From Veronia pacifica (GTDB lineage Bacteria > Pseudomonadota > Gammaproteobacteria > Enterobacterales > Vibrionaceae): a DNA stretch of 64,000 nt. Below are positions 5,046 through 58,951 of the stretch, piece after piece (within the stretch, counting starts at the first letter, position 1; each line of letters begins with the position of its first letter). The stretch covers positions 146,354 through 210,353 of the forward strand of contig NZ_LYBM01000003.1 of NCBI RefSeq assembly GCF_001707825.1, given 5' to 3'. The notes under the pieces were generated by a model. It ran no database searches and was not told the DNA's origin. It saw nothing but the letters and a program-made list of their open reading frames with translations. Both the position numbers and the translations under genes were made by a program.

Positions 5046-6230
5046 TTAGATTCTGCTTGCCCCTCTTGATGCAACGCAAATGTAGAATTCGGGATTCAGT
5101 CGAGTAATTTCTTCATACTGCTTTTGAACGGCGTTTACTACGTTATCGATGAGGTCATGGGGTAGCAACGCAACCACGCAGCCACCAAATCCTCCGCCCG
5201 TCATTCGAACTCCGCCTCTCGTGCCGATGACTCCTTTTATCAGCGCGACCAATAAATCGATTTCACTCACAGTTATTTCAAAGTCATTACGCATGGATAT
5301 GTGAGACGCTTCCATCAACTCCGATAATTTACTCATAGCTTCCTGTGACAGGGCCTCAATGGCTGCCAACGTTCGCTCATTCTCTGTGACAACATGTTTA
5401 GCTCGCTTAAAGATCAATGGGTCCAAACCACACTGATCGCGCATAAGGTCTTCAGATGACAGTTCACGGAGTGTATTGACACCATAATGGCGAGCAGCGC
5501 TTTCACACTGTTGGCGGCGTAAATTATATTCGCTGTCAACAAGCCCACGCCGTTTGTTCGAATTGATAATCAACACACTTATGTTATCCGGCAAGGCGAC
5601 AGGTTGAATGTCCAGAGTCAGGCAGTCGATAAGTAGGCCGTGACGATCATGTGCAGTCGCTGATACCATTTGATCCATAATTCCACACTTACAGCCCACG
5701 AATTCGTTCTCGGCTTTTTGGGATATTAATGCGATTTGTTTTTGGCTCAGTGAAAGATCATAGAGTTCGCTAAACATTTGTGTGATCGCAACCTCCAGAG
5801 AAGCAGAGGAGCTCAGGCCTGCACCCTGAGGAATGTTACCACTGACCACCAAATCAACACCGCCCAGTGCATGCGAGCCCTCATTTAATGCGACAACCAC
5901 ACCGCGTATGTAATTCGCCCACATTTTCTCTTTATGGACGGCAATTTCTTCCTTGAGGCTGAACTGATCACTGTCGTTATCGTAGTCCGCCGCGACAACA
6001 CGCACTACATCGTCATTGCGCTTTGCAACAGCCACAACAGTGGCGAAATTGATCGCGCAAGGCAGAACGTAACCACCATTGTAATCCGTATGCTCACCAA
6101 TCAGGTTTACCCGCCCGGGTGCCTGAAAAAGATATTGATGGGTATAGCCAAAGACGTCTTCAAATACTGAGCCAGCGCGCTCGCACAATTCAGTCAAATC
6201 ACCCGTGACAACCGCGTTTCTGTCTTCCAT
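5046..6230 (-). CDS. galK: galactokinase
   Basis: GHMP kinase motifs (PGRVNLIGEHTDYNGG, GAGLSSSASLEVA). Collinear with E. coli GalK. Start ATG 6230 sits 1 nt after the galT stop. Confidence 0.93.
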   Translation of the reverse strand: MEDRNAVVTGDLTELCERAGSVFEDVFGYTHQYLFQAPGRVNLIGEHTDYNGGYVLPCAINFATVVAVAKRNDDVVRVVAADYDNDSDQFSLKEEIAVHKEKMWANYIRGVVVALNEGSHALGGVDLVVSGNIPQGAGLSSSASLEVAITQMFSELYDLSLSQKQIALISQKAENEFVGCKCGIMDQMVSATAHDRHGLLIDCLTLDIQPVALPDNISVLIINSNKRRGLVDSEYNLRRQQCESAARHYGVNTLRELSSEDLMRDQCGLDPLIFKRAKHVVTENERTLAAIEALSQEAMSKLSELMEASHISMRNDFEITVSEIDLLVALIKGVIGTRGGVRMTGGGFGGCVVALLPHDLIDNVVNAVQKQYEEITRLNPEFYICVASRGASRI

Positions 6231-6231
6231 A

Positions 6232-7285
6232 TCAGACCTGCTCTTTGTAGTGAATATCGCTGACAGCACGCAGTCTCTCTGCTGCCTGTTCCGGTGTTAA
6301 ATCACGCTGACTCTCTGCGAGCATTTCATATCCAACCATGAACTTTCTTACTGTCGCACTGCGCAGCAAGGGTGGATAAAACAACGCATGAAGTTGCCAA
6401 TGCTCGATGTCAGTTGATGGATCGAAAAATGGCGCAAAGTGCCACCCCATCGAATAAGGAAAAGACGTCCGGAACAGATTGTCATAGCGGCAAGTCAAAG
6501 ATTTCAACGCATGCGCCAAATCATAGCGTTGTTGTTGAGAAAGCTCGTTCATTCTCCGGACATGGCTTTTAGGTAACAGCATGGTTTCAAAAGGCCATGC
6601 AGCCCAGTAAGGCACTACAGCTACCCAGTGCTCTGTTTCCACAACAACACGGGCATCCGCTTCGACCTCACGTTCGACATAGTCCACCAGCAAATTAGTG
6701 CCATGCTCCTGATAGTAGCTTTTCAGGTGGTTATTTTTATTGGCTATTTCATTCGGTACAAAGCTATTCGCCCAGATCTGACCATGCGGATGAGGCTGCG
6801 AACACCCCATCGCTTCCCCTTTGTTTCGAAACCTGTACCCAGATATACTTTTCACCCAGTTCGCGAAGCTGTTGGTCCCATGTCTCTATGACTGCACCAA
6901 TTTGCGGTAAAGAAAGCTCAGGCAGGGTTTTACTGTGGTCGGGTGAAAAGCAGAGTACCCGGCTAAGGCCAGTAACGCTCTCTGCTCTGAACAAAGGACT
7001 TTCAGATTTCGGTGATGCGGGGCATTCTTTTGTCAGTGCCGCAAAGTCATTCTCGAACACGTACGTTGAACAAAAGTCAGGATTATTTTCTCCAGACACT
7101 CGAGTGTTGCCAGGGCATAAAAAACATGTCTCGTCATACTGCGGTAAAGCTGTCTTTGATGGGCTTTCATCTTGTCCACTCCACGGCCTTTTCGCACGGT
7201 GCGGTGAAACCAGTACCCATTGTCCGGTCATCGGATTAAATCGTCGATGTGGATGTTCAGCAGCATCAAAAACCATTTTGCTCAC
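6232..7285 (-). pseudogene. galT: galactose-1-phosphate uridylyltransferase, interrupted by a frameshift near 6830
   Basis: Two ORFs (7285..6764 and 6855..6232) together cover a full GalT collinear with E. coli. They include CFLCPGN and the active-site HPHGQ. The frame changes inside caggtttcgaaac (expected WVQVF-E/R-NKG). Confidence 0.85.
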
Positions 7286-7287
7286 TT

Positions 7288-8325
7288 TTACTCCTCACTA
7301 AAAGTTCGCGGCGAGGTGTAACCATTCGGGTTATTGACCTGCCAGCGCCATGTGTCCTCCGCCATCTCCATCAATGAATAGCGGGCATGCCAATCCAACT
7401 CACGCGACGCTTTGGACGGATCAGCCCAGTACTCCGCAATATCACCCGCCCTGCGTGGACAAATTTCGAAGGGAATGTTTGCGTCACATGCCACCGAGAA
7501 GGTGTAAATCATTTGCATGACACTGGTCCCCTTGCCAGTGCCTAGGTTAAACACATGAAGCCCAGATTTATCAGCCAATTTCTGGAAAGCGGCCACATGC
7601 CCGGCGGCCAGATCCATCACATGGATATAGTCACGTATGCCTGTGCCATCTGGTGTTGGGTAATCGTTACCAAATACACTAAGTTTTTCTCTTTTACCCA
7701 CCGCGACTTGGGCAATAAATGGCATCAGGTTATTTGGAGTGCCTTTCGGATCCTCACCAATCACACCTGAAGGATGTGCGCCAACCGGATTAAAGTAGCG
7801 AAGCAGGCAAATACTCGAATCAGGTGTTGCAGACTGGAGGTCGGTCAAACATTGTTCAACCATATGTTTACTCCGACCATAGGGGCTGGCTATATTTCCC
7901 GTCGATGCTTCCTCTGTAATAGGCACTCGCTCGGGTTCGCCATAAACGGTGGCTGATGAGCTGAATATCAGGCACTTCACATTGGCGCGGGTCATTGCCC
8001 TCACCAAAGACAAAGATCCGCTCACGTTGTTGTCGAAGTAAGTCAGCGGATCCGCAACGGATTCAGCAACAGACTTCAAACCTGCAAAATGCATCACGCC
8101 ATCAATATTATGCTTGCTAAAGATGTCTTCGAGGCACTTTTCGTCACGAACATCGGCTTCGTAAAAACATGCTTGATGGTCAGTTAACGCCTTGATTCTA
8201 TCTAATACTTCAATACTTGAATTTGCCAGGTTATCGACAATGACAGGGGTAAAGCCATTTTCAATCAGTTGAACGACAGTATGGCTGCCGATATAGCCTA
8301 GCCCGCCAGTGACCAAAACATTCAT
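7288..8325 (-). CDS. galE: UDP-glucose 4-epimerase
   Basis: VLVTGGLGYIGSH Rossmann motif, YxxxK, collinear with E. coli GalE. RBS aagga sits 8 nt before ATG 8325. Position 8331 is TTG. Confidence 0.93.
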   Translation of the reverse strand: MNVLVTGGLGYIGSHTVVQLIENGFTPVIVDNLANSSIEVLDRIKALTDHQACFYEADVRDEKCLEDIFSKHNIDGVMHFAGLKSVAESVADPLTYFDNNVSGSLSLVRAMTRANVKCLIFSSSATVYGEPERVPITEEASTGNIASPYGRSKHMVEQCLTDLQSATPDSSICLLRYFNPVGAHPSGVIGEDPKGTPNNLMPFIAQVAVGKREKLSVFGNDYPTPDGTGIRDYIHVMDLAAGHVAAFQKLADKSGLHVFNLGTGKGTSVMQMIYTFSVACDANIPFEICPRRAGDIAEYWADPSKASRELDWHARYSLMEMAEDTWRWQVNNPNGYTSPRTFSEE

Positions 8326-8500
8326 ACACAATATCCTTTGCTATTGTTCACTGCCTGCGCTGTTATCGCTGGAGTGTCATAAGTGTGGCAGTCAAATTTA
8401 AATTCTCTCTGTGACAACTTAATAAATAATATTAACTATTCCTAATTGATATTCATATTCGAGGGCCACGACCCGAATGACAAGATCGCGGCCCAGCCTT

Positions 8501-10789
8501 TCAGTGAATAAAGTTATTAGGTCTTATCACTGGCCATCCGTCCTGCCATTCAATCTTGCCCATGTATGCTCTGCGTCTTTCTACGTGTGCCGGTAAACGC
8601 GAATCGGGATGAATGCTCGAACATTCAAGAGCGGCCTCAGAGGCATGAAACACCGCATACCAATCTTTTGTTTCCCTCTCTTGAATAAAGCCTGCATGTC
8701 CCGGACCTTTGAGCCTTGTGCGGTCTTTGCTCGAATCTTCAGGTAACATCGCTGTGTGCAAAAATGGGTGAGGACTCGGTTCATAAGGACCATACAATGA
8801 GCGTGACCGGGCAACACTTTCGGCATAGGATTCGGTGCAGAATCGTCCTGATGCGTAGAACAGATAGTAGTAGTCTTCATGTTTGATAAGCTCTGGCCCT
8901 TCAATTAATGAGCCTCCCGGAACCCACGAGTCTTCCCACAAACCATGACCTGATCGTAAAAGGGCTTTTCTGGTACCCTCTACCAATTGAATCGACTCGG
9001 TGTATGGATCAATATCAATTTGCTGAATAAAAAGGACAGTTTCAGGACTGGCAGTAAAACCCGCACTCCCACCACAGTCTTTTTCATCTCCGAATTGATA
9101 ATTAAGGGATATAGGGTAAAAGCAGTGGTTATTTTCCTGCTTCCATAGGAAATAGTATTTCCCATTATCTTTAAAAATATTCGGGTCAATCTCACCCGCA
9201 TGGAAATTACCCAAGTCGAGCACAACATCTGATACATGCTTAAATGCGCTGTCGCCAAGGCCATCATGGGAAAATACAACACCTATTCGGTGACGGCCAA
9301 TGTAGGTATATCTCGAATCAGACTCGGCTTCTTTTGGTGGACACCGTCCTCCCTCAGGTGAAGAGAACATCAACATGTATTCTTGATCTGTTAATTTAAA
9401 GGTTTCACTCGCCCAGCGCTGCTGACAGTTGGCCCAGTGTCGGTTGGTATCATCTACAGAGTCGTTGTAGGGATAAGTATGCTCAGGCGCTCTGCCAAAG
9501 TCCTTTCCGGCAAACTTTTCAGGTGTCATCCACCCTACTGGCTCATAGCCTGTCGGGTTTGCTAATTTCTCGCTTCGATACAGTTTAATGCCATCAAAAC
9601 TGGCGCAAGTAAGGTAATAGGCGTCACCGGAATCAACGATAAAGGGATCAGGGCAATGAGGAAAGTTACCCTCTCCATTCTGTTTAACGAGAGTTTTGAC
9701 GGAAATGGAGTCTGGATATCCTGCCCACCTGGTGCTAAAGATATTGACTGAACTCTGTCGACTGTCCTTCGATAGTGCTACCTGATTATCCCCGCAATCT
9801 CCCGCTGCCGATACATATCGCCCGCTTCCCTCAGGACGATTCACAGCAATCAATGTACCGCCTGCCATTTTTGCTGGTGCCAATTCCCCCTCTTCGACGA
9901 TAAACTCGAATTCCGTGGTGAGATCATCGGCTTCATCCAAGCTGACAAGGCTCAAGGTATTGTCATTGGGATCCGATGAATAGGTAACCGCGAAAATTTC
10001 GCTTTTCGTTGCCCCCTTCACTACACCTATTTTATATCTATTGTTACTAAGACCAATCATCTGGAAGGTTTGATTTTCGCCAAACGTTCTCCACAGATCC
10101 AAGTTAGTCAGGTTGTTGTCATAGCTCAACGCTCTGAATTCGCAGGTCTTCGCTGATGACGCCTCGATCATTCTGAAAGCACTGTTTTCATCGCAGCGAT
10201 CGTTCAGTGAAAGTTGAGTCTCGCGTCCACTGTCATAGCCAATAAAACGATGACAGGCGGCGTTTGACTTGCCCGGCGATATGGCTTCAAGACAAACCAT
10301 TTTTCCATCCTGATAACGAAACTCGCCATCGCTGGCAGTGTCCCTTATGTGGTTTGCGGGCTTAATTCTAAATAACTGGTTCGCACCTCTTTGGCTCCAG
10401 AGGTCAACAAGGGGGGAGTCACAAGCATCGATATAAGACATCCATCGTTGCCTACTGCCAGTATTCGGGCCTTCGGTGCACTCTGTATCTGCCCTTAGAT
10501 ACACAGAATCTGGCTCTGGTCCGGGTTGAGCTGTCCAGCGCTGGTTGTTTCCTGCTTTCGGCCATAAATCTAATGGCTTGCCCAGCTTGCAATTATCATG
10601 ACTTATAAAGTCGACGTGTTTCTCAATATCTGTTGCTGGTTTGGCTGTCTGAAAGTAAATACTCTGAGTATTTCGTTTAATCTCAATAAACACTCCCAAA
10701 GGAGCTGGCTTATCACAACCAAACAGCATCGCAATTACGATAAAATATAGCGGGAATAAAAAGCCGCGCTTTCTATTATGAGAAAACAT
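8501..10789 (-). CDS. lipoprotein glycoside hydrolase: N-terminal ricin-B/CBM13-like QxW repeats plus C-terminal GH43 domain
   Basis: Lipobox AMLFGC. QxW/QxF repeats (NQRW, NQLF, NQTF). GH43 catalytic-base motif DPFIVDSGDAYYL and acid motif LIEGPELIKHEDYYYLFYAS. RBS ggag sits 8 nt before ATG 10789. Confidence 0.75.
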   Translation of the reverse strand: MFSHNRKRGFLFPLYFIVIAMLFGCDKPAPLGVFIEIKRNTQSIYFQTAKPATDIEKHVDFISHDNCKLGKPLDLWPKAGNNQRWTAQPGPEPDSVYLRADTECTEGPNTGSRQRWMSYIDACDSPLVDLWSQRGANQLFRIKPANHIRDTASDGEFRYQDGKMVCLEAISPGKSNAACHRFIGYDSGRETQLSLNDRCDENSAFRMIEASSAKTCEFRALSYDNNLTNLDLWRTFGENQTFQMIGLSNNRYKIGVVKGATKSEIFAVTYSSDPNDNTLSLVSLDEADDLTTEFEFIVEEGELAPAKMAGGTLIAVNRPEGSGRYVSAAGDCGDNQVALSKDSRQSSVNIFSTRWAGYPDSISVKTLVKQNGEGNFPHCPDPFIVDSGDAYYLTCASFDGIKLYRSEKLANPTGYEPVGWMTPEKFAGKDFGRAPEHTYPYNDSVDDTNRHWANCQQRWASETFKLTDQEYMLMFSSPEGGRCPPKEAESDSRYTYIGRHRIGVVFSHDGLGDSAFKHVSDVVLDLGNFHAGEIDPNIFKDNGKYYFLWKQENNHCFYPISLNYQFGDEKDCGGSAGFTASPETVLFIQQIDIDPYTESIQLVEGTRKALLRSGHGLWEDSWVPGGSLIEGPELIKHEDYYYLFYASGRFCTESYAESVARSRSLYGPYEPSPHPFLHTAMLPEDSSKDRTRLKGPGHAGFIQERETKDWYAVFHASEAALECSSIHPDSRLPAHVERRRAYMGKIEWQDGWPVIRPNNFIH

Positions 10790-10826
10790 ATGCATATCTC
10801 CACGAAATTTATATATAAGACTGTAG

Positions 10827-12038
10827 TTACGCTTTGTTTCTTCCCCTAAAATCTACAGGTGTCATATTAACTTCAGCTTTAAATACTCGGTAAAGGTATT
10901 CCTCTGCTGAATATCCAGACATTTTTGCAATGTCGCTGACTGAAAGATCCGTTGTCATCAGTAAGTGTTTTGCATTATCTAACTTTGCATCATGTAAGGC
11001 TTTATGGATGGAATACCCCATCTTTTCTTTATATTTCTTTTCAACGAGTGTTCGTGAGAAACCAATACTATCGACCACTTGTTGAACTTTAATACCGCGC
11101 CTAAAGTTATTTCGGATATATGTATTCACCTGAATCACGACTGGATCGAGTTCGACATTAGATTGCGTAGTCTCGCCAAAATCAATATCACTGGGTGAAA
11201 TTAAGCCAGACTTAAATTTCACTCTTTCTTTCCTTATTTTTCTTATTAACATGTCACAAGCTAACTCACCGACTTCAGTTAATGGCATTTTTATTCCGGT
11301 CATTTTTTGTCGGGTTATAAAGTCGTCAATGTTATTTTCTTTCAGTGTGATAATGGACACTTCACCGGGAACGAGATAGCCAACCTCCAGACAGGCATCC
11401 AATAGTGCTTTCGAACGACTTTCATTAATTACCACAATGCCGCAAGGCTTAGGTAAAGAATTTATCCAGTTGATCAGTCGCTGATTTTCTTGTTTCCAGG
11501 ACCGAAAGTTAGTTAGCATCCCATGAAACGTTGACGTCTGGATATCTTCGCGCTCGCTGAGTGAATTAAATGCGTGCATTCGACCGATATAACGCGGATC
11601 ACTGGCATCGTCCAAAACATCATAGCAGCCAATGTAATAAATCCCCGCTGAGACAAAGCAGTCGACTGCCATATCAATACACGCCTTCGAATTTATTCCT
11701 ACAGTCATGACACTGAATTTTTTCTCTATTGCTTCAGATTGCTCAAGAACACCCACAATAGGTAGGCTTGTTCTTTCAAAAGTATTTATCTGAAGAGAGT
11801 CAGAATAATCAGCAATAATGCCATCGAACCAAATATCTTCAATATCTTGATGTTCAGACACTATTTCATTTCCGAATATTATTTCAACATCTACATTTTC
11901 TTTTAAAAGGTATTGATTTATTCCTCTAATGATACTGGCCTGTCTAGAAATAAGCGGATTCAAAAGCACGGCCAGCCTCAAGCGATTAGGCAGTAACTTA
12001 CTGGTATCAAGTGAAACCCTTCTTGCGGTAATTGTCAT
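10827..12038 (-). CDS. XylR-like transcriptional regulator (periplasmic-binding-protein-like sugar sensor domain plus AraC-type HTH)
   Basis: 403 aa. The C-terminal AraC/XylS HTH (…DIAKMSGYSAEEYLYRVFK…) and N-terminal PBP-like fold match XylR architecture. Confidence 0.75.
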   Translation of the reverse strand: MTITARRVSLDTSKLLPNRLRLAVLLNPLISRQASIIRGINQYLLKENVDVEIIFGNEIVSEHQDIEDIWFDGIIADYSDSLQINTFERTSLPIVGVLEQSEAIEKKFSVMTVGINSKACIDMAVDCFVSAGIYYIGCYDVLDDASDPRYIGRMHAFNSLSEREDIQTSTFHGMLTNFRSWKQENQRLINWINSLPKPCGIVVINESRSKALLDACLEVGYLVPGEVSIITLKENNIDDFITRQKMTGIKMPLTEVGELACDMLIRKIRKERVKFKSGLISPSDIDFGETTQSNVELDPVVIQVNTYIRNNFRRGIKVQQVVDSIGFSRTLVEKKYKEKMGYSIHKALHDAKLDNAKHLLMTTDLSVSDIAKMSGYSAEEYLYRVFKAEVNMTPVDFRGRNKA

Positions 12039-12088
12039 CCTTGAGGCCTATTCCGAATAGACTGTGTATTAATACAAAAAAAAGAAAT

Positions 12089-13066
12089 TTATGCCTTCGC
12101 TTTACTGGCTATTTTATTTATTACTCCTGATGAAATTATTTTCTGTATTAGAATGAAGAAAAATAGAAGAACACCAATGATTATTTTTGTCCACCAAGAG
12201 TTTAACGTTCCGTCAAAGGTGATAATTGTCTGAATCGTTCCTTGGATCAGCACGCCAAAAAGTGTTCCGATAACATAGCCGACACCACCCGATAAGAGTG
12301 TTCCACCGATCACTGCTGAGGCAATGGCATCAAGCTCCAATCCCATCGCTGACAGGGCATATCCCGAAAAGGTATAAAACGTAAAGAGGATCCCTGCCAA
12401 CGCGGCAAGAAAACTGCTGGTGGCGTACACCATGATTTTTGTTTTATTGACAGGTATCCCCAGTAATACCGATGAGCTCTCACTGCCGCCGATAGCATAT
12501 ATATGCCTGCCAAACGGCGTGTAGTGAGCAATGAGGGTAAAGATGCCAACCACAGCGATAAGAATAAGTGTGCTGACGGTGATTGAGCCGTTATCAGGCA
12601 AATCGATCGAAAAGTCACTGATCGCATCATAAAAGCTATGGCTGATCGGTACAGACTCCAGACTGATCACCAAAGATAAGCCGCGAAGAAAAAACATGCC
12701 CGCCAGCGTCACGATAAATGGTGGTAAGTCATAAGCATCAATCAGATACCCCATCAAGCTGCCAAAGGCAGTGGCGATAACGAGAACGACAGCAAACGCG
12801 AGCAACGGATGAAAGTGATAGTGCTCGATCATGACGGATACCGATACGCCGACACAGGCAATCATTGCACCGACTGAGAGATCAATACCGCCTGAGATGA
12901 TCACCAGCGTTAACCCTACTGCCGCGACAATAAGAAATGCATTATCATTAAACAGGTTAGTAAGCACGCGGACAGAGAAGAAAGACTCAAACATCAATCC
13001 GCCGAAAATATAAAGCGCGGAGAAGACAACAACAGTCGCGACAAGAGGTAAATATTTAGTCTGCAT
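12089..13066 (-). CDS. yjfF: sugar ABC transporter permease, YjfF-like
   Basis: Polytopic membrane ORF with the GGIDLSVGA permease motif. Fourth gene of a YtfQRT-YjfF-type cluster. Confidence 0.8.
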   Translation of the reverse strand: MQTKYLPLVATVVVFSALYIFGGLMFESFFSVRVLTNLFNDNAFLIVAAVGLTLVIISGGIDLSVGAMIACVGVSVSVMIEHYHFHPLLAFAVVLVIATAFGSLMGYLIDAYDLPPFIVTLAGMFFLRGLSLVISLESVPISHSFYDAISDFSIDLPDNGSITVSTLILIAVVGIFTLIAHYTPFGRHIYAIGGSESSSVLLGIPVNKTKIMVYATSSFLAALAGILFTFYTFSGYALSAMGLELDAIASAVIGGTLLSGGVGYVIGTLFGVLIQGTIQTIITFDGTLNSWWTKIIIGVLLFFFILIQKIISSGVINKIASKAKA

Positions 13067-14111
13067 CCTGCGCTCCTTTCTTCAATAGTCCTTTGACTGA
13101 CTGCCTGAATTTGGCTGAGAGCAACAGCATCACCAGAACTACCACCACAGATTTGATGACAAACGTGAACTGCGCGGGAATACCATTGGTGAGGATCGTG
13201 GTAGTGATCGTTTGAAGGAGCAGGACGCCGATCAGCGTAGACCAGAGGTAAAACTTACCGCCAATTAATGCTGTTCCACCAATGACTACTGCCAAAATCG
13301 CATCGAGCTCAGACCATAGTCCGGCATTATTGGCATCGGCTCCCTTGATATCAGCGGCCAATATCATCCCTGCCAGCCCGGCGCAAATGCCGCAGAAGGC
13401 ATACACAAACATCTTGGTGAATTTTTCATTCAATCCAAGGTAATGGCTTGCTTTTGGATTACCCCCGACAGAGGCAATGAAAAGCCCAAGCGACGTTGCC
13501 TTCATTAGCCAAGCCGTCAGTCCATACATAATGAGGACGATGATCACCGGGGTGGGAATACCCAGAAGGTAACCATTGCCGATGAACTCGAATGCCGGGA
13601 AGTTAAAGGTGAGTACCTGACCATCGGTAATTAGCTGAGCAACACCGCGACCTGCCACCATCAGCATTAACGTCGCAATGATGGGTTGAATACCGATATA
13701 GATCACGAGAAGTCCATTCCAAGCACCTGCAATACCAGCCACTAAGAGAGTGATAGCCACAATGGACAACAAGGACTCTATTTGCACTATTGATATGAGG
13801 TAGGCGCTTGTTGCGCCTGCAATGGCAACGACTGCACCGACCGACAAGTCAATCCCTCCCGTGGCGATGACTAACGTCATCCCGAGTGCCAGTAAAGCGA
13901 TGGGCGACGCCCGATTGGCGATATCAATCAAGCTGCCAAATAAGTGGCCGTTCTTGATTTCGACCGTCAAAAACCCAGGGTCAAACACACCATTCGCGAT
14001 GATCAATAAAAAGAGGGAAAGCGCTGGCCAGAAAACCGAATTATTGATGATTCTCGGCCAGGTTTTCTTTGGCTTCACTGGTACGTTTTTGTTCGTATTT
14101 GCAAGTGTCAT
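13056..14111 (-). CDS. ytfT: sugar ABC transporter permease, YtfT-like
   Basis: Polytopic membrane ORF with the GGIDLSVGA motif. Overlaps its neighbours by 4-11 nt. Confidence 0.8.
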   Translation of the reverse strand: MTLANTNKNVPVKPKKTWPRIINNSVFWPALSLFLLIIANGVFDPGFLTVEIKNGHLFGSLIDIANRASPIALLALGMTLVIATGGIDLSVGAVVAIAGATSAYLISIVQIESLLSIVAITLLVAGIAGAWNGLLVIYIGIQPIIATLMLMVAGRGVAQLITDGQVLTFNFPAFEFIGNGYLLGIPTPVIIVLIMYGLTAWLMKATSLGLFIASVGGNPKASHYLGLNEKFTKMFVYAFCGICAGLAGMILAADIKGADANNAGLWSELDAILAVVIGGTALIGGKFYLWSTLIGVLLLQTITTTILTNGIPAQFTFVIKSVVVVLVMLLLSAKFRQSVKGLLKKGAQDAD

Positions 14112-15610
14112 GCACCGCTCCCAATAGCCCTGACGATATCTGTAGTTGTCACTGGTTTCTCTGACAAAACCGTAACCGGATGCTTATCCTTCATGACTAA
14201 CACCTCGTCACTCGACTCTGTGACCTCTTCTAGCTCAGAAGAAATAAGCACAACCGATACCCCTTGCTTGCAGAGGTTGGCGATGATCTGTTTGATTTCC
14301 TGTTTTGCGCCCACATCAATCCCCCGTGTTGGCTCGTCAAGGATCAAGATGGCTGGTTCAACGCATAACCAACGGGCAAGAATGACCTTTTGCTGGTTGC
14401 CACCACTGAGATTTTTAACAGGCGTGTCCCAATGCGAGGTAACAATATTGAGATGACGTATGAAGCGTTTGGCGATGTCTTCTTGCTCGGCAGCCGGAAT
14501 TTTATCGAAAACACCGCGTCTGGCTTGGAGTGCGAGGATAATATTGTCTTTCACCGACAGGTCAGGAATGATTCCCTCACTCTTTCTATCTTCAGGACAC
14601 AAGGCGATACCAGCCGCGATAGCCTGCCTTGGTGATGAAATCTTCTCGCTCTCACCGAAGATCTCAATCGCGCCGCTGTCAGCATGCTCTAGGCCAAAGA
14701 GGAGCTGAGCAAGTTCCGTTCGACCTGAACCCAGCAAGCCCGCAACACCATAAACTGTGCCTTTGGTCAGCATCATATCAACGGGTGCCAGAAAACGATG
14801 TTTACCCATATTTTTTACGTTCAGCGCGATTTCTTCTTTACTCACCTCAGACGTGTCTTTGTATATTTCTCTGTTTTTGTTTAATGGCTGATTAAGCATC
14901 AACCTAACCAGCGCTTCCTGACCCAGTGATTCAGTGTCATAAGTCCCCAATTTGGTGCCGTTTCTGAGCACGGTAATACGGTCCGTGACCTGATAAACCT
15001 GGTCGAGGAAATGGGTGACAAAGATAATGCCGATACCTTTCTTGGCGAGATTTCGCATCATCTCAAATAGATTCTCTACCTCTTTACCGTCCAGCGATGC
15101 CGTAGGTTCATCAAGAATCAGGACTTTGGCCGACATGTCTACACCGCGGGCAATTGCAACCATCTGCTGCACTGCCACCGAGTACGCATCAAGGTTTTGC
15201 GTGACATCGACATTGATATTCAGCTCGTCCATTCGCTTCTGCGCCAGAGCATGCATCTGCTTTCTGTCAATCAATCCAAATCGTTTTGGCTGACGACCGA
15301 AAAAGATGTTCTCTGCAATGCTCTGCGTGGGGATGAGATTGACTTCCTGATAGACAGTGCTTATCCCTACTTCTGCCATATCGGTGGCAGAAGCACGGGT
15401 AATATTCACATCATCGAGAATGACTTTGCCTTTCTCAGCACGATAAATCCCGGTAATGCATTTGATCAGTGTTGACTTGCCAGCACCGTTTCCACCGAGG
15501 AGTGCGTGAATTTCACCCCGTCGCAATGAGAAGTCTACGTCTGAGAGGGCTCTTACACCCGGAAATGACTTGGTCATTCCTGTGACTGACAATATGCGAT
15601 CTTCCATCAT
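14108..15610 (-). CDS. ytfR: sugar ABC transporter ATP-binding protein with duplicated ATPase domains, YtfR-like
   Basis: Two Walker A sites (GGNGAGKST; GLLGSGRTE) and LSGGNQQK signature motifs. Start set at MMEDRILSV with RBS aagga. Confidence 0.85.
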   Translation of the reverse strand: MMEDRILSVTGMTKSFPGVRALSDVDFSLRRGEIHALLGGNGAGKSTLIKCITGIYRAEKGKVILDDVNITRASATDMAEVGISTVYQEVNLIPTQSIAENIFFGRQPKRFGLIDRKQMHALAQKRMDELNINVDVTQNLDAYSVAVQQMVAIARGVDMSAKVLILDEPTASLDGKEVENLFEMMRNLAKKGIGIIFVTHFLDQVYQVTDRITVLRNGTKLGTYDTESLGQEALVRLMLNQPLNKNREIYKDTSEVSKEEIALNVKNMGKHRFLAPVDMMLTKGTVYGVAGLLGSGRTELAQLLFGLEHADSGAIEIFGESEKISSPRQAIAAGIALCPEDRKSEGIIPDLSVKDNIILALQARRGVFDKIPAAEQEDIAKRFIRHLNIVTSHWDTPVKNLSGGNQQKVILARWLCVEPAILILDEPTRGIDVGAKQEIKQIIANLCKQGVSVVLISSELEEVTESSDEVLVMKDKHPVTVLSEKPVTTTDIVRAIGSGA

Positions 15611-15661
15611 CCCTTTTCCTTTTTTTGCCGGGCTGAAAAGCCAACCCGGCATCAGGCTTTA

Positions 15662-16606
15662 TTAGTATTTGCGAGAAGCGACAGTCTCTTTCGCATTTTC
15701 TCTGAGATGGATGAGGTCATCTTGTACCACCCATTTAGGTGCTTCTTTGCCCGCCAGCGCGAGTTCAACCTGATCAAAGGCCAAAGGTCCAAGCAAAGGG
15801 TTACACTCGACGGTGGCATTGAGGTCACCATCAATCATGGCCTCAAACGCCCCTTTCACCGCATCGACCGAAATCAGTTTGATGTCTTCACCGGGCACCA
15901 TACCGAAGTCTTTAATCGCCTGAATAGCACCCAGCGCCATGTCGTCATTGTGTGCGTACACAGCATCAATGTTGTTGCCATGTGCTTTGAGGAAAGCTTC
16001 CATGACTTCTTTACCTTTGGTGCGCGTAAACTCTCCATTTTGGGTAGCGATGATGTTGAGCTTAGGGAACAAATCGACAACTTCTTTGAATCCTTTCTGA
16101 CGGTCAATGGCTGCGCTTGCCCCGGTACTTCCCTGCAATTCGACGACCTTGCCCTGTCCATGAAGTGCTTGCGCTAACCAACTGCCTGCCAGACGTCCTT
16201 CAAAAATGAAATCAGAAGCAACCTTGGTGTAATAGAGGGAGTCGTCATCAACAGCAATGCCACGGTCAACAAGGATGACAGGGATTTTCGCTTTCTTTGC
16301 TTCGCGCAACACACGCTCCCAGCCTGTCTCTACGACAGGGGCGAGAATAATGGCGTCCACACCCTGTGCAATAAAGGAACGAATCGCTTTAATCTGATTC
16401 TCCTGTTTTTGCTGTGCATCAGAAAATTTGAGCGTATAGCCACGTTTCTGAGCCTCTTCTTTGATAGATTGCGTTTCCGCCGTCCTCCAAGAGCTTTCAG
16501 CCCCGATTTGGGCAAAGCCGACGGTGATTGCAAATGCCTTGAACGAGAACAACAGGGTGAAGACCGCTATGAACAGCAACCGTATGTACGACTTTTTTCC
16601 TGACAT
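15662..16606 (-). CDS. ytfQ: periplasmic sugar-binding protein, YtfQ-like (galactofuranose-binding family)
   Basis: Signal peptide MSGKKSYIRLLFIAVFTLLFSFKAFA. Periplasmic-binding-protein type I fold, collinear with E. coli YtfQ. Confidence 0.85.
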   Translation of the reverse strand: MSGKKSYIRLLFIAVFTLLFSFKAFAITVGFAQIGAESSWRTAETQSIKEEAQKRGYTLKFSDAQQKQENQIKAIRSFIAQGVDAIILAPVVETGWERVLREAKKAKIPVILVDRGIAVDDDSLYYTKVASDFIFEGRLAGSWLAQALHGQGKVVELQGSTGASAAIDRQKGFKEVVDLFPKLNIIATQNGEFTRTKGKEVMEAFLKAHGNNIDAVYAHNDDMALGAIQAIKDFGMVPGEDIKLISVDAVKGAFEAMIDGDLNATVECNPLLGPLAFDQVELALAGKEAPKWVVQDDLIHLRENAKETVASRKY

Positions 16607-17220
16607 TTTCGTCTCCTTGAAAATTGAGAACCTTTCTATTAGCCAACAAACTGCGTCAACTGGTGATTGTTTCGTTAACGCATCAACTATAGGTCTGCCA
16701 AAAATGTTTCACGTACTGGAAAATTAACCATCCGCCTGTCTTTTTGATTGATTCAGCAACAGTCGAAAAATCTGAGTGGATATTTAGTAAATAAAATCAG
16801 AGATCTAAGAGAGGAAAAAATACAGTGTCGCTTATTGATTGAACCCGCCAGATCAGCAGCCACCAAGGAATACACTGTACTGAAAAAAGACATGCCGCTA
16901 CTGAACGTTATTAATCAAAAAATCGATTGAATGAGCTGTTGATAGAGAACGAATATCCGGTGCTGGCTAACGTGACTGGAGCAAAGATGTAAGGGTGATC
17001 AAACTGTTATCAACACTTCTGGATACTGGAAAACGAGGCATCCTTAGCAATGGTCACTTGCCCGATCAGAGGCTCCAAACCGTGACATTCCTGTCAATGT
17101 GTATAATCCCTGATTAACCTGATCCGGCCTCGTTTTAGGTTTTATAGCCTCCAAATTTACAGTGAACAGCTTTATTTGGTTATCTGGTGAGCCAATGGCG
17201 ACACGAACAGATGCCGTCAC

Positions 17221-18782: not shown

Positions 18783-19211
18783 TTACGCTTCCTCATAATA
18801 CTCGTCGAAGACTTCTTTCGAGAATTCAACAGATTCATAATCTGCCAATAAATCATTGATTACGCGCCTAACACTGATGTACTCAGTGATCTCCCCTGCT
18901 TCATTGAATATGGGGTGTACCGTGGTATCAACCACATAAATCTCACCATTTTTGCCTTTATTGGGTATTATGCCAGTCCAGATTTTCCCTGCTTTGATGG
19001 TATCCCACATGTTTTTGTATACTTCTTTTGGTACTTGTTCCACACGGACCAGATTGTGAGGCTGACCGATCAACTCATTTTCCTCATACCCAGTAAGCTG
19101 ACAAAATAATGAATTCACATAGGTGATATTACCTTCCAGATCGGTTTTAGAAATTACCAGCGCATTTTGAACAGCTGTCATAATTTGGTCATTGAGGCTT
19201 TGTTGGCTCAT
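18783..19211 (-). CDS. stand-alone PAS domain protein
   Basis: 142-aa ORF with a PAS fold pattern (NITYVNSLFCQLTGYEENELIGQ…GEIYVVDTTVHPI). Its stop is 2 nt from the reductase ATG. Confidence 0.7.
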   Translation of the reverse strand: MSQQSLNDQIMTAVQNALVISKTDLEGNITYVNSLFCQLTGYEENELIGQPHNLVRVEQVPKEVYKNMWDTIKAGKIWTGIIPNKGKNGEIYVVDTTVHPIFNEAGEITEYISVRRVINDLLADYESVEFSKEVFDEYYEEA

Positions 19212-19982
19212 TACTCATTCCCTTTATTGATAATGGTTATCACTTAGATTAATAAAGATGTATTTGAGATGCAACTTATAAAATGATGTAAATCTGTATG
19301 TACTTGATGCGCGGAATGACATCTCACATTTAGACATTATTTACTGATAATTATATATTTATTGAGATCGCTGAGTGTATTAATGGAGTAATTCACACAT
19401 TTTTCTCGATAGTTTTTTCGCAAAAGTAAGTACCTTTATCACTCTCTGGACTTCATCTTTCTTCGGCTGATGTAAGGCGATACTCGCTGTCGGTGGATAG
19501 ATGGGATCTTGAGACATGATGCAAAACTATTTATCTCCATTGAAGAGTATGACGTGATAAAAAATGCTTATAAAAGTGTCGAATTAAATCTCTATAAACC
19601 AAAAAATCAGAAGAAGCTTGAATTAAAAGGGGTTGTAAATTAACTGTTATTATTCAATTTTCAAATAAAAAATTAGTTAATATTAAGATATAGATAAATA
19701 CTTTCCTAAATATCTAGACATCTATTAATGAAAATTCGGATAAATTATAAAAAACAAATAACTTTTATAGTGTGGCATATATTAGTTTTTATAAAACTAA
19801 TAGCATTAATCTTTTTAAACATAAAGTTTATTCTCATAAATAAAGCACTTACTCATAATAACCTGCCATATTTTATTTATGTTTAACAATGAATCAAATA
19901 AGGATAATTATTTTATGAAATAAAAATCATATAATAATTAATTCAACCCAAAATATGAATATATTAATCAAGGAGTAATAAA

Positions 19983-20738
19983 TTGAAAGTTACATGCTTT
20001 ATTTTAAAAAAATTATTTTTTTATTTGTCAGGTTTTATTTTTTTGTTAGGAGTAAATATGAGTGCAAACGCAACAGCAGATAATCAGGTACGAGCGAGTT
20101 ACATTCAATTAACCGCCCAATCTGGTAAAGAAACAGATTTAGCAGATTTCCTTGGTGTTGGTGCTCAGTTAGTCAGTGACACAGAACCTGAGACTTTATT
20201 GTGGTCAGCTCTTCAATCACAAGACAAGAAGACATTGGTTATTTTTGATACCTTCGGGTCTCAGGCTGCTCAAGATGCTCACTTCTCTGGGAAAATCCCA
20301 GAAGCTCTGAGTAGCAAAGCACATGACTTAGTTCAGGGTGGATGGAATAAAGGGGTTGTTCCGAATATAAATAATGCTGATATCATTGCATTTAAAACCA
20401 CGCCCGACGCTGTAAGTAATGTCAAAATTGCTACCTTTATTCCTCTTACTGCTAAGGCTGGTCAAGAAGAAAACCTTGCTAATTTTTTGAAGCAAGGTGC
20501 TCAGATTGTTAAGGATAATGAGCCAGACACACTACATTGGTTTGCTATTCATTTTGGTCAGAACAAATTCGGAATCGTCGATTTTTTCCCGAATCAAGCG
20601 GCTGTTGATCATCATTTTGCAGGTGGCGTAGCTCAGGCCATGCAACAACACGCTGCAACCCTCGTTGAGGGTGGTTGGGAAAACGGTGTTGTCGCTGGAA
20701 TCCAAGCTTTTAGCGTCATTGAGTTTATTAAGCGTTAG
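19983..20738 (+). CDS. tandem ABM (antibiotic biosynthesis monooxygenase-like) domain protein with a predicted N-terminal signal peptide
   Basis: Two ~95-aa ABM-like repeats. A TTG start at 19983 has aggag 7 nt upstream and gives a Sec-type signal ending SANA|TADN. An alternative ATG at 20058 also has aggag. Confidence 0.6.
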   Translation: MKVTCFILKKLFFYLSGFIFLLGVNMSANATADNQVRASYIQLTAQSGKETDLADFLGVGAQLVSDTEPETLLWSALQSQDKKTLVIFDTFGSQAAQDAHFSGKIPEALSSKAHDLVQGGWNKGVVPNINNADIIAFKTTPDAVSNVKIATFIPLTAKAGQEENLANFLKQGAQIVKDNEPDTLHWFAIHFGQNKFGIVDFFPNQAAVDHHFAGGVAQAMQQHAATLVEGGWENGVVAGIQAFSVIEFIKR

Positions 20739-25714: not shown

Positions 25715-26968
25715 TCAACACTTCACCGATGGCAAATCCTTCCAACGGGTAGTGTATTGAGGCGATAGAAACTCTCTTCGCATTCCCCACTTTGGTGTAA
25801 TTCCCTGTGCCGCCAAAAAAACCGTACCTTTGCCATAGCGATGATTCAGCCCATCAAATGCTTTCATTAGTGCTGGGTTTCCGGGCTGTTCATCAAACAA
25901 GTCAGGCTGGATATGTTCTGCACTTGCCAAATCTAAGAGTCCAACCCCGACTTTGTAATATTTCACCCCCGACTCGAAGAGCAAAGGAATCAGGTCAGAC
26001 ACAGCGCGGGTGATCACTGCCGTATCGTCGACAGCAAAAGCAAAACGGTGCAACTGTTTAAAGCTTTTAGGGTTGTCGTCATAAGGGGAATTACCCGCGA
26101 ATACCATCAACACCGAGCACACTGACTTTTGTGCCCGTAACTTGGCTGCAGCTATGCCTGCATGCTTACACAAAGCCTGATGTAACGAGACTTCATCTAC
26201 GATTCGCTGTCCCATTGAGCGAGTAGAGAAAATCTGCTGTTTATCAGCACGGGATACGTCCCAACCTTTGCAGACCTCACCGTTGAGTTCACGAACTGTG
26301 CGCTCCATTTCCACATTAAACTCACGACGCATCAGCGCGGGTTTCTGCCGCGACAAAGACAGGGCAGTTTCAATACCTTGCCTCTTGAGCCGCACAGAGA
26401 TTCGGCGGCCAACACCCCAGACATCCTCTACCGCCATCTGCTCCAGGATAGAGAGACGTTGTGACTCCGAATCAAGCACACAGACACCGTCAAACCCCGC
26501 CATTTTTTTTGCCGCATGATTAGCCACTTTGGCCAGCGTCAGAGTCGGCCCCATCCCTACCCCTACTGCCAGCCGACACTCTTTCCAAACCGCCCGACGC
26601 AGGGCCTTTGCGTGTTCTTGTAAATGTGGAATGGCACTGCAGCGGTGAAAAGAAAGAAACGATTCATCAATGGAATACACATGCTGATCCGGTGCAAAAC
26701 GACCGATCACCTGCATCATCTTGTCCGACAAATCACCATACAGTTCATAATTTGACGAACAAACAACCACAGAATTCGCCCGGCAAAGCGCTTGGACCTG
26801 AAAAAAGGGTTTGAATTTCTCTACGCCTATTTCTTTTGCCTGACGGTTGGCAGCCACGACACAACCATCGTTGTTTGATAGCACGACCATTGGTTTTCCT
26901 CGCCAGTCCGGGCGAAAAACCTGCTCGGCACTGCAGTAAAATGCATTGGCATCGACTAGCGCGAACAT
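25715..26968 (-). CDS. umuC: DNA polymerase V catalytic subunit (Y-family)
   Basis: Collinear with E. coli UmuC from MFALVDANAFY through SPQYTTRW. Confidence 0.93.
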   Translation of the reverse strand: MFALVDANAFYCSAEQVFRPDWRGKPMVVLSNNDGCVVAANRQAKEIGVEKFKPFFQVQALCRANSVVVCSSNYELYGDLSDKMMQVIGRFAPDQHVYSIDESFLSFHRCSAIPHLQEHAKALRRAVWKECRLAVGVGMGPTLTLAKVANHAAKKMAGFDGVCVLDSESQRLSILEQMAVEDVWGVGRRISVRLKRQGIETALSLSRQKPALMRREFNVEMERTVRELNGEVCKGWDVSRADKQQIFSTRSMGQRIVDEVSLHQALCKHAGIAAAKLRAQKSVCSVLMVFAGNSPYDDNPKSFKQLHRFAFAVDDTAVITRAVSDLIPLLFESGVKYYKVGVGLLDLASAEHIQPDLFDEQPGNPALMKAFDGLNHRYGKGTVFLAAQGITPKWGMRREFLSPQYTTRWKDLPSVKC

Positions 26969-33376: not shown

Positions 33377-34441
33377 TTAGCGTTCCAAAGATTGTTGAAG
33401 TGCTACCTTAAGCTCCTGCTCAGCTCTCTCAATAACTTGCTGTGCTTGCTCTCGTTGTGCACGCCCCTCCTTCACCCGCAACAGGGTATTATTCAGGGTT
33501 TCAATGGTCAGTTGGTTAACCGCTTGCAAAGAGTCAATATCAAGGATTCCACGTTGATAGTTCTCAGCAATTTGCTCTTCCAGTACTTTCAGCTTTTCTG
33601 CATTCTGCACGTACTGCCGATTGGTATAATCTTTAACCGCTCGCGTCACCTTCAACGCTTTTTCTTTTTCATAATTCGAAATGGCAATGAGGAACTGGCG
33701 TTTCCAGAGAGGAAAAGTGTTGTGAACGATATCCTGAATATCCTCCATCAACATTTTGTTTCCCTCCTGCGACAACCTGATCTGCGGCGCAGTCTGTATA
33801 GCGGCCAATCGGGTCAATTCGAGGTTGTGTACGCGTTTCTCAAGACGGGCAACCGCCTGAGTGGCATCACGATACTTTTGCGCATCAAGCGCGTCACCGC
33901 TACTCTCAGACTGCTGTAACAGTTGAGGTAACAGGTTCTGATTTAAGTCATTCAGCTTATATTTTCCTGCCGCAATATATTCCTCTAACCCTTTCAAAAA
34001 CGCCAGGTTGTGATCGTAAAGGGCATCCAACTGACCAATGTCGTGAGCCAGTTTAATTTCCTGTGCCTCCAGACGGCTGGATAAGGCATCAAGCTGACCC
34101 TTAACCGAATCAAAGCTTGCAGAGAATGATTTGAACGAGTCAAACATTTCACCAATTAGCGGTAACTTAGAGAGCAGGTTAGTCTTCCCGATACCATCAA
34201 ATTCGGCACCATCCATTGATGACACCATTTCTTGTAAAATATTGCCCGCCTCGCCGCTGTCCCGAACCCGAATCTGATCCAACACCTGGTCTGAGAACGC
34301 GGTGATCTGCTCCAGCGCCTCTTTGCCAAAGGTGATCGTCGCAACGGTATCAAAAGGGTCGAAACGACCAGCTATCTCAATCGCCTGCGGCGTCACCTCA
34401 ACGTCCCTGATCTGCGCAGTCTGATGAGTCAATTCAGTCAT
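33377..34441 (-). CDS. telA: TelA/KlaB family toxic-anion-resistance protein
   Basis: About 355 aa, coiled-coil rich, with TelA family length and pattern. RBS aaagga sits 7 nt before ATG 34441. The upstream TTG at 34504 has no RBS. Confidence 0.7.
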   Translation of the reverse strand: MTELTHQTAQIRDVEVTPQAIEIAGRFDPFDTVATITFGKEALEQITAFSDQVLDQIRVRDSGEAGNILQEMVSSMDGAEFDGIGKTNLLSKLPLIGEMFDSFKSFSASFDSVKGQLDALSSRLEAQEIKLAHDIGQLDALYDHNLAFLKGLEEYIAAGKYKLNDLNQNLLPQLLQQSESSGDALDAQKYRDATQAVARLEKRVHNLELTRLAAIQTAPQIRLSQEGNKMLMEDIQDIVHNTFPLWKRQFLIAISNYEKEKALKVTRAVKDYTNRQYVQNAEKLKVLEEQIAENYQRGILDIDSLQAVNQLTIETLNNTLLRVKEGRAQREQAQQVIERAEQELKVALQQSLER

Positions 34442-34645
34442 GAGGTATTCCTTTAATCTGTTGCAGTTGGTAGAAAAGCCCACCAACTGCGGTTCAACTA
34501 ACAAAATACGCAGAGAAATCTGCGCTCAGGGTCATGTCTTCCTGATAGATTTATTCGCAACGCATGCATGTCACACTCTGCGGTCGTTTATATCGTGGGA
34601 GCAGAAACTGTATGGTACTTAAACCACGCTTCATGAAAGTGAAGT

Positions 34646-39514: not shown

Positions 39515-39571
39515 GCTGATACCTGTTTATCCCGTCTCTGATGAGACGGGATCCTGTGAGAGAGAAAATAG

Positions 39572-58794: not shown

Positions 58795-58951
58795 CGATTG
58801 ACTGTGCTCGCTCTTATGACACTGGAAAACAGAGCTATCAAGCCCAATAAAAGGTCTTAGATCAAAATAACAATGCAAATAGAAATGGTTTGCATTTACA
58901 TTTTTCGATGAATATCATCCCGACTCTTTTTTCCAAACCACTTTGAGCAGT

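Follow-up and report, generated by a model that had tools for sequence, protein, structure and literature searches.

Nine consecutive co-directional genes occupy the minus strand between positions 5046 and 16606 of a 64,000-nucleotide stretch of the Veronia pacifica genome (hereafter the window) and code, in the order of transcription, for a YtfQ-like binding protein, a YtfR-like ATPase, YtfT- and YjfF-like permeases, a XylR-type regulator, a glycosidase of the GH43 family, and the enzymes GalE, GalT and GalK. We propose, at chances that we judge to be about even, that the first six genes constitute a furanoside-utilization module located directly upstream of the Leloir operon galETK, and that the two together serve in the release of galactofuranosides, the import of the freed furanose and its catabolism by the Leloir pathway. 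The more general scheme of release plus furanose import can be put forward with good confidence. All nine genes had been recognized in an earlier reading of this DNA (the original prediction), and our family scans uphold their identities. That prediction had treated the nine as one locus. We find that the conserved unit is the six-gene module and that galETK is a Veronia-specific neighbor, because Grimontia sp. NTOU-MAR1 carries the same six genes without galETK. In Grimontia the genes are arranged in the same order and their products are 58-88% identical to those of Veronia; the module is flanked by phoD and psiE, its replicon measures 1.65 Mb, and gal genes are not found nearby. In Veronia the genes of the module overlap by 4 and 11 bp or are separated by gaps of 31-54 bp, and a spacer of 175 bp that contains a hairpin precedes galE.

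The six-gene module and the adjoining gal genes

The first four genes specify a transporter with the same order as the Escherichia coli YtfQRT-YjfF (GafABCD) system, namely a binding protein, a tandem ATPase and two permeases, and the best-scoring NCBIfam models for the four products are the YtfQ, YtfR, YtfT and YjfF equivalogs (Table 1). Other models score far lower with the binding protein (RbsB 144, XylF 72 and MglB 53 bits), and the second-best model for the ATPase is AraG at 479 bits. Unlike in the E. coli system, three of the four proteins stay below the equivalog cut-offs (YtfQ 406 against 510, YtfR 679 against 850 and YtfT 354 against 535 bits), with YjfF exceeding its own (453 against 363); these cut-offs look tuned to enterobacterial orthologs. 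The start of the ATPase gene at 15607 fits a 499-aa gene call in a read assembly of the same strain (L002, see below). Among structures in the PDB, the five best matches of the binding protein are without exception GafA/YtfQ proteins, including Shewanella GafA (5OCP; 345 bits, 60% identity), E. coli YtfQ (2VK2; 326 bits, 56%) and Mycobacterium smegmatis GafA (6HYH/6HBD; 297 bits, 52%), all of which have been crystallized with bound furanoses (PMC10191376). The assignment to a YtfQRT-YjfF/Gaf-type transporter is thus borne out, with the binding protein grouping with YtfQ, far from the ribose and xylose binders.

The first-shell residues of the E. coli, Shewanella and M. smegmatis binders are identical (Drousiotis et al., PMC10191376). 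In the window protein the corresponding WR motif is W40-R41 and the counterpart of E. coli Asp111 is D114, and these three residues are invariant in 85 of 85 aligned sequences, including 2VK2, 5OCP and 6HYH. In Shewanella GafA, a second-shell Phe40 has been proposed to bar galactofuranose (Galf) by blocking the movement of the conserved Asp (PMC10191376). Our alignments place Phe at this position in Shewanella, Asn in M. smegmatis, and Glu in E. coli, Grimontia and the window protein (E44), so that the latter keeps the Trp-Arg, the Asp and the second-shell Glu of E. coli YtfQ. As far as its sequence can tell, it holds nothing that would speak against Galf binding.

The fifth gene encodes a regulator of the XylR architecture, which exceeds the Pfam cut-offs of PBP1_XylR (PF22177; 38.9 against 27), Peripla_BP_3 (PF13377; 57.2 against 26.5) and PF12833 (53.4 against 33.6); its Grimontia ortholog is 58% identical and occupies the same position. 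The E. coli ytfQRT-yjfF operon differs from the window in having neither a glycosidase nor a dedicated regulator nor adjacent catabolic genes, and it is controlled by GalR/GalS (PMC5110547, PMC10191376).

The product of the sixth gene, a 100% match to a Veronia pacifica database protein, contains a GH43 domain (PF04616; 125.4 bits against a gathering score of 32.2) that is assigned to the five-bladed beta-propeller fold. Three residues, D383 (CPDPF), D537 (EIDPN) and E632 (LIEGPE), are invariant in an alignment of 17 GH43 sequences, and in line with established knowledge of the family we take them to be the general base, the pKa-modulating Asp and the general acid, respectively. With the family match, the catalytic Asp/Asp/Glu and the export signal in place, the GH43 catalytic domain of the original prediction is confirmed. 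The same prediction made the enzyme a surface-tethered lipoprotein, which holds only in part. The putative lipobox, NRKRGFLFPLYFIVIAMLFG-C, fits by eye the pattern [LVI][ASTVILMF][GAS]C expected behind a positively charged n-region and a hydrophobic h-region, making a lipid anchor plausible. However, the +2 residue after the lipobox Cys is Asp, which under the Lol rule established for E. coli would signal retention in the inner membrane, and the sole ortholog, that of Grimontia, has a plain signal peptide from which the lipobox Cys is absent. Because of these two features, a periplasmic location appears more likely than tethering at the surface.

The region ahead of the catalytic domain had been read as a CBM13/ricin-B module. 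Its 354 residues (23-376) match no Pfam family even at E<=1, including the ricin-type families PF00652 and PF14200, and in a search with this region alone no sequence match was obtained in the PDB; no solved trefoil is matched at the sequence level. It does contain six trefoil-like repeats of the form (R/x)(F/Y)xS(Y/H)…(L)DLW…G.NQ.(F/W), which can also be written as xFxSYx..DLWxxxGxNQxF, with the endings NQRW, NQLF, NSAF, NQTF, (T)EFEF and VNIF. Distant relatives have three such repeats at the same place, and PF14200 (RicinB_lectin_2) is matched in the relatives P0003 (46.4 bits), P0007 (24.6) and P0018 (23.9). AlphaFold2 modeling with a two-sequence alignment gave a predicted local distance difference test score (pLDDT) of 32; addition of distant relatives (17 sequences) yielded a usable model, with a confident catalytic domain, pLDDT values of 70-89 for residues ~220-360 and values below 50 for most of residues 26-205. 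A Foldseek search with the whole model returned as top match the GH43_26 arabinofuranosidase 9NXG over 580 columns, which is beyond the length of a catalytic domain. What stands of the ricin-B claim, given the repeats, the PF14200 matches of the relatives and the moderately confident model, is a plausible ricin-like trefoil at the N-terminus, probably a duplicated one; what falls away is a ricin Pfam match in the protein itself.

The enzyme is about 20%, and at most 24%, identical to solved GH43 structures, and at this distance the data give no placement in a subfamily specific for xylan, the finding that would have undone the proposed role in galactose use. The trefoil-containing enzymes SaAraf43A (3AKF), AtAbf43C (9NXG; GH43_26) and Ct1,3Gal43A (3VSF; GH43_24, with a ricin-type module) share only 19-22% identity with it, and differ from it in that the Veronia protein has its repeat region at the N-terminus, seemingly in duplicated form with six repeats, and four insertions in its catalytic domain. 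An exo-beta-1,3-galactanase was also considered as an identity of the GH43 and was rejected on the fold ranking. As to the activity proposed here, several GH43 subfamilies hydrolyze p-nitrophenyl-beta-D-Galf (PMC6442616, PMC12290620).

The Grimontia protein, with 58% identity, is the sole other full-length homolog of this GH43 in 5.8 billion protein clusters, and in a HMMER search over 1.84 billion representatives it scored 1622 bits whereas everything else scored at most 195 bits, with 24 matches below 1e-30. The next-best relatives (P0005, P0006, P0011 and P0009/P0169; L084, L085; ~30% identity) also combine a trefoil with GH43, and their identifiable sources are marine eukaryotes, namely a diatom (Proboscia alata), a dinoflagellate (Polykrikos kofoidii), a choanoflagellate (Diaphanoeca grandis) and a picoalga-like metagenomic contig of 1.17 Mb, on which the neighboring genes, for an SNF2 helicase and an LPA2-like protein, look algal. 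The closest relative that looks bacterial, P0003, has an uninformative context consisting of a DUF6261 protein and an ankyrin-repeat protein. A metagenome scan recovered no close relatives of the Veronia enzyme, and the 17-sequence profile, used in a word-indexed search for homologs, gave nothing new. The family looks mainly eukaryotic and marine, and the Veronia enzyme, which forms an isolated clade, is an almost orphan bacterial representative.

Beyond the spacer, galE and galK score above their equivalog cut-offs, in agreement with the original prediction, whereas galT is frameshifted in the window. It appears as two overlapping open reading frames (ORFs), 6764-7285 and 6232-6855, that match positions 3-156 and 151-346 of the NF008724 model. 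Relative to the Logan assembly of the same-strain read set SRR3539775 (L002), which codes for an intact GalT of 351 aa, the break consists of two 1-nt deletions, at window positions 6833 and 6826, 7 bp apart, and these are the only differences across 20,791 aligned bases. Given the proximity of the two deletions and their absence from a read assembly that is identical everywhere else, the frameshift is probably an assembly artefact, that is, a consensus error in the deposited sequence. A true pseudogene was set aside in view of this intact independent assembly, a real subpopulation variant being a possibility. One base lies between the galT stop codon and the galK start codon. The hairpin between the GH43 gene and galE is not followed by a U-tract and has no counterpart at the equivalent place in Grimontia.

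Linkage of Gaf transporters with GH43 and galactose genes elsewhere

A gaf-gal link at the regulatory level is known from E. coli, where ytfQ has a GalR site verified by chromatin immunoprecipitation (PMC5110547), and a 2023 survey of about 100 gaf loci reported none with a direct link to genes of D-galactose catabolism (PMC10191376). We scanned species-representative genomes for relatives of the window binding protein and obtained 80 loci from other species (L003-L082; 55-67% identity), of which 29 carry araA, L-arabonate dehydratase or a GH51 arabinofuranosidase, and seven carry galK and/or galT within 10 kb (one of them, L011, only weakly). Two of these clusters were checked gene by gene. 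In an uncultured member of the Verrucomicrobiota (L024, 3045-12544), galK-gafBCD-gafA-GH43-galT-galE lie on a single strand, with the GH43 protein showing a GH43_C2 domain and a clear signal peptide. Likewise, a locus from Verrucomicrobia (L012, 899-12178) combines a divergent XylR-type regulator, a GH2 gene, galK, gafBCDA and a GH43 of the L024 type. In the myxococcote Archangium gephyra (L010, 3993-20852), the gene just upstream of gafA codes for an L024-type GH43, and galK follows some 9 kb downstream of gafA. The binding proteins of all three are 61-62% identical to the window protein and have the Glu in common with it. Regulators of the same architecture as that of Veronia adjoin galK and gaf genes in L012, as checked with Pfam, and probably in L064, going by tblastn only.

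These three clusters resemble the window in uniting a Gaf transporter with an exported GH43 and one or more Leloir genes, and in the case of L012 also with a XylR-type regulator; they differ from it in gene order and in the type of GH43. Their enzymes (GH43 + GH43_C2, about 530 aa) belong to a family with more than 3000 proteins at E<=1e-60 that is automatically annotated as beta-xylosidase. A tie between this type and the GH43_32 galactofuranosidase of Opitutus terrae was sought and no link emerged, the 120 best homologs listed bearing automatic names only. The linkage of gaf, GH43 and galK/T/E genes recurs in at least three unrelated lineages, which lowers the likelihood that it is purely coincidental in Veronia; the earlier suggestion that release and import feed galactose catabolism gains independent support from the clusters in Verrucomicrobiota and Archangium. 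Gaf transporters, exported GH43 enzymes and Leloir genes have thus come together on more than one occasion, with differing components. In the literature searched, this linkage seems not to have been described. While all components come from known families, the arrangement is new: beside Leloir genes stands a furanose transporter equipped with a glycosidase and a regulator of its own, and the GH43 is an almost orphan enzyme nearest to marine protist proteins.

The residue at the Phe40 position of the binding protein follows genomic context: Glu is present in seven of the seven gal-linked loci and in none of the 29 arabinose-linked ones, which have Asn (26) or Phe (3), an association with a Fisher p of about 1e-7 that is uncorrected for phylogeny, the neighbor-joining tree showing clades. 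Loci that have Glu and a binding-protein identity of 61-66% carry gal, GH2 or GH43 neighbors, not ara genes. A comparable but arabinose-directed system is known from Shewanella sp. ANA-3, where the Gaf transporter is likewise part of a catabolic cluster, and where secreted furanosidases are proposed to release the furanose that Gaf captures ahead of mutarotation (PMC10191376). The Shewanella cluster contains arabinose catabolism genes and AraR, and its binding protein, though 60% identical to that of the window, has Phe40 and does not bind galactose, whereas the window has galETK, a XylR-type regulator and Glu.

Candidate pathway and competing explanations

In the pathway that we favor, the GH43 enzyme would be exported, remaining soluble in Grimontia and, in Veronia, being probably kept by a lipid anchor at the periplasmic face of the inner membrane. 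Once a glycan or oligosaccharide has entered the periplasm, the trefoil-like repeats may bind it, and the propeller domain would cleave off terminal furanosyl residues, most likely beta-D-galactofuranose. The YtfQ/GafA-type protein would then trap the furanose form ahead of mutarotation and pass it on to the YtfR/YtfT/YjfF importer. In the cytoplasm, the imported sugar would re-equilibrate to galactopyranose and be handed to GalK, GalT and GalE. The XylR-type protein would detect the sugar, its presumed ligand and inducer, and activate the module, with which galETK may be co-regulated. For the sugar itself, D-Galf has something like an even chance and L-arabinofuranose (L-Araf) a minor one, and what is left would go to another sugar or to a pyranosidase. 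A bolder version, offered tentatively and with more doubt than belief, is that the Veronia and Grimontia trefoil-GH43 is a periplasmic exo-beta-D-galactofuranosidase founding a new GH43 subfamily that otherwise occurs in marine protists, and that it works in a dedicated galactofuranoside pathway whose other members are the Leloir genes, a Gaf transporter that captures Galf and a XylR-type sensor devoted to it, with convergent counterparts in Verrucomicrobiota and Myxococcota that use a different GH43. We found no description of a dedicated bacterial galactofuranoside-utilization pathway of this make-up in the literature searched. The locus and the convergent clusters would supply the missing link between gaf and galactose, and a testable answer to the role of E. 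coli-type Gaf transporters; moreover, the harvest of galactofuranose by bacteria from microbial or algal glycans becomes testable with three proteins and one strain. Since Galf is absent from mammals and common in the surface glycans of fungi, protozoa and bacteria, Galf-specific enzymes and binders could have diagnostic and biotechnological uses.

Several observations weigh against Galf as the substrate or against a functional tie to galETK. The hairpin and the 175-bp spacer set the GH43 gene apart from galE, and the sole ortholog of the enzyme, in Grimontia, does not adjoin gal genes. The regions upstream of ytfQ (in both Veronia and Grimontia) and of galE have no motif in common except the ribosome-binding site TCAAGGAGAC, no operator motif is common to the ytfQ and galE regions, and a GalR-operator-like site was not found anywhere in the 64-kb window. 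Structurally, the GH43 domain is nearest to the alpha-L-arabinofuranosidases 4QQS, 3AKF and 9NXG. Both Galf and L-Araf are bound by the E. coli GafA, which has Glu at the Phe40 position, and by that of M. smegmatis, which has Asn. The Glu is best read as a marker of a gal-associated clade, and not as a proven determinant, because the residue classes coincide with clades in the tree and the test is not phylogenetically independent. The L024-type GH43s, which score only 45-53 bits when set against those of Veronia and Grimontia, are of another type, and the locus encodes no outer-membrane uptake component.

L-arabinofuranose as the sugar is in fact a serious rival, if an unlikely one in our estimate. 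The six genes would then be an L-arabinofuranoside module, with the GH43 acting as an exo-alpha-L-arabinofuranosidase, the transporter importing L-Araf, the arabinose genes being located elsewhere and galETK being a mere neighbor. Such a module would suit the facts that alpha-L-arabinofuranosidase is the commonest GH43 activity and that the best structural matches are enzymes of this kind, that the Araf-specific GafA 5OCP outscores YtfQ as a match of the binding protein (345 against 326 bits), that 29 of the 80 sampled gafA loci are ara-linked, and that the module is present in Grimontia without gal genes. In addition, all characterized GafA proteins bind L-Araf and most described gaf loci are linked to ara genes (PMC10191376). 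On the other hand, the locus contains no araBAD, arabonate-pathway or GH51 gene, and no sugar-catabolic match came from the remaining large ORFs that were scanned across the window; the binding protein has neither of the residues seen in ara-linked loci (Asn and Phe), its Glu occurring in none of the 29, and the Glu loci of comparable identity (61-66%) are those with gal, GH2 or GH43 genes.

The adjacency to galETK might also be coincidental, the result of a horizontally moved module for some other furanose-forming sugar or glycoside (e.g. of the D-fucose, D-allose or D-talose type) having been inserted upstream of a housekeeping gal operon. We regard this as quite improbable, although the flanks of the module are completely different in Veronia and Grimontia, the GC content drops to 0.39-0.44 in the regulator gene and in the part of the GH43 gene next to it (11001-12000 and 10001-11000) as against 0.46-0.50 in most other parts of the locus, the hairpin and spacer lie ahead of galE, the clade of the Veronia GH43 has no characterized member, and GafA proteins also show weak to moderate binding of D-fucose, D-allose and D-talose (PMC10191376). 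What counts against it is the linkage in at least three unrelated lineages, coincidence being possible for this one genome. Very remote in our judgment is the reading of the GH43 as a pyranosidase (for instance a GH43_24-type exo-beta-1,3-galactanase) that frees galactopyranose straight into the Leloir pathway. Known exo-beta-1,3-galactanases do join GH43 to a ricin-type module (3VSF was deposited as 'Ricin B lectin') and the gal genes do adjoin, but these enzymes are missing among the sequence matches of the GH43 even at E<=1, and the co-conserved transporter is of a furanose-specific type and not of the Mgl type.

Feature coordinates and other parts of the window

Table 1. Features of the locus, in window coordinates
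Feature	Position	Strand	Basis or remark
gafA/ytfQ-like, furanose-binding protein of the periplasm, 314 aa with signal peptide	15662..16606	-	NCBIfam YtfQ, 405.9 bits
gafB/ytfR-like tandem ABC ATPase, start probably 15607	14108..15652	-	NCBIfam YtfR, 679 bits; two ABC_tran domains
gafC/ytfT-like permease	13056..14111	-	NCBIfam YtfT, 353.8 bits; BPD_transp_2; overlaps ytfR by 4 bp
gafD/yjfF-like permease	12089..13066	-	NCBIfam YjfF, 453.4 bits; overlaps ytfT by 11 bp
Regulator of XylR architecture, periplasmic-binding-protein-like sensor and AraC helix-turn-helix	10827..12038	-	Pfam
Exported glycosidase of family GH43, repeat region at the N-terminus, 764 aa (762 aa from the NCBI start)	8501..10795	-	PF04616
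Signal peptide with lipobox (…IAMLFG-C27-D28)	10715..10795	-	Translation
Six trefoil-like repeats (residues ~45-360), putatively forming two beta-trefoil modules	9716..10663	-	Repeat motifs
GH43 five-bladed propeller catalytic domain, about residues 375-764, four lineage-specific insertions	8504..9673	-	
Hairpin, 12-bp stem, directly after the GH43 stop codon	8463..8494	-	Minimum free energy -22.8 kcal/mol, z -2.19
galE, UDP-glucose 4-epimerase, start probably 8325	7288..8325	-	NF007956, 530.4 bits, and TIGR01179, 445 bits, both above cut-off
galT, galactose-1-phosphate uridylyltransferase, frame broken at 6826/6833	6232..7285	-	NF008724, two fragments
galK, galactokinase, start probably 6230	5046..6230	-	NF003472, 588.3 bits, above cut-off 499
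Presumed promoter/operator region, non-coding, 614 bp	16607..17220	-	Upstream of the binding-protein gene

In the presumed promoter/operator region (16607..17220) neither a minus-strand ORF of at least 80 aa nor a consensus sigma-70 site was found, and scans for promoter and terminator consensus sites gave hits no more frequent than in shuffled sequence, with none in the intergenic regions. The genes on either side of the locus have no tie to sugar use: those upstream code for a flavodoxin-reductase-like protein and a PAS protein, and others in the flanks, on the opposite strand, for an Ldh_2 protein and subunits of sarcosine oxidase. Positions 19001-20000, which separate the gene for the PAS-domain protein from an ORF at 19983-20738, are markedly AT-rich, with a GC content of 0.287 as against ~0.45-0.50 around them.

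Elsewhere in the window, the minus strand of 25715-26968 encodes a UmuC-like translesion polymerase subunit (409 bits, slightly below the cut-off of 431). A minus-strand group at 33377-41659 may be a stress or defense-type cluster; it comprises a TelA-family protein and, encoded upstream of it, a 1622-aa protein and a 695-aa ORF. The 1622-aa protein matches DUF3686 ('ATPase involved in DNA repair'), DUF7902 and, weakly, AAA, whereas the ORF has no Pfam match. Finally, the plus strand of 58943-63213 encodes two adjacent Lcl_C-domain proteins, with a MauG-like di-haem cytochrome c peroxidase domain fused to the second.

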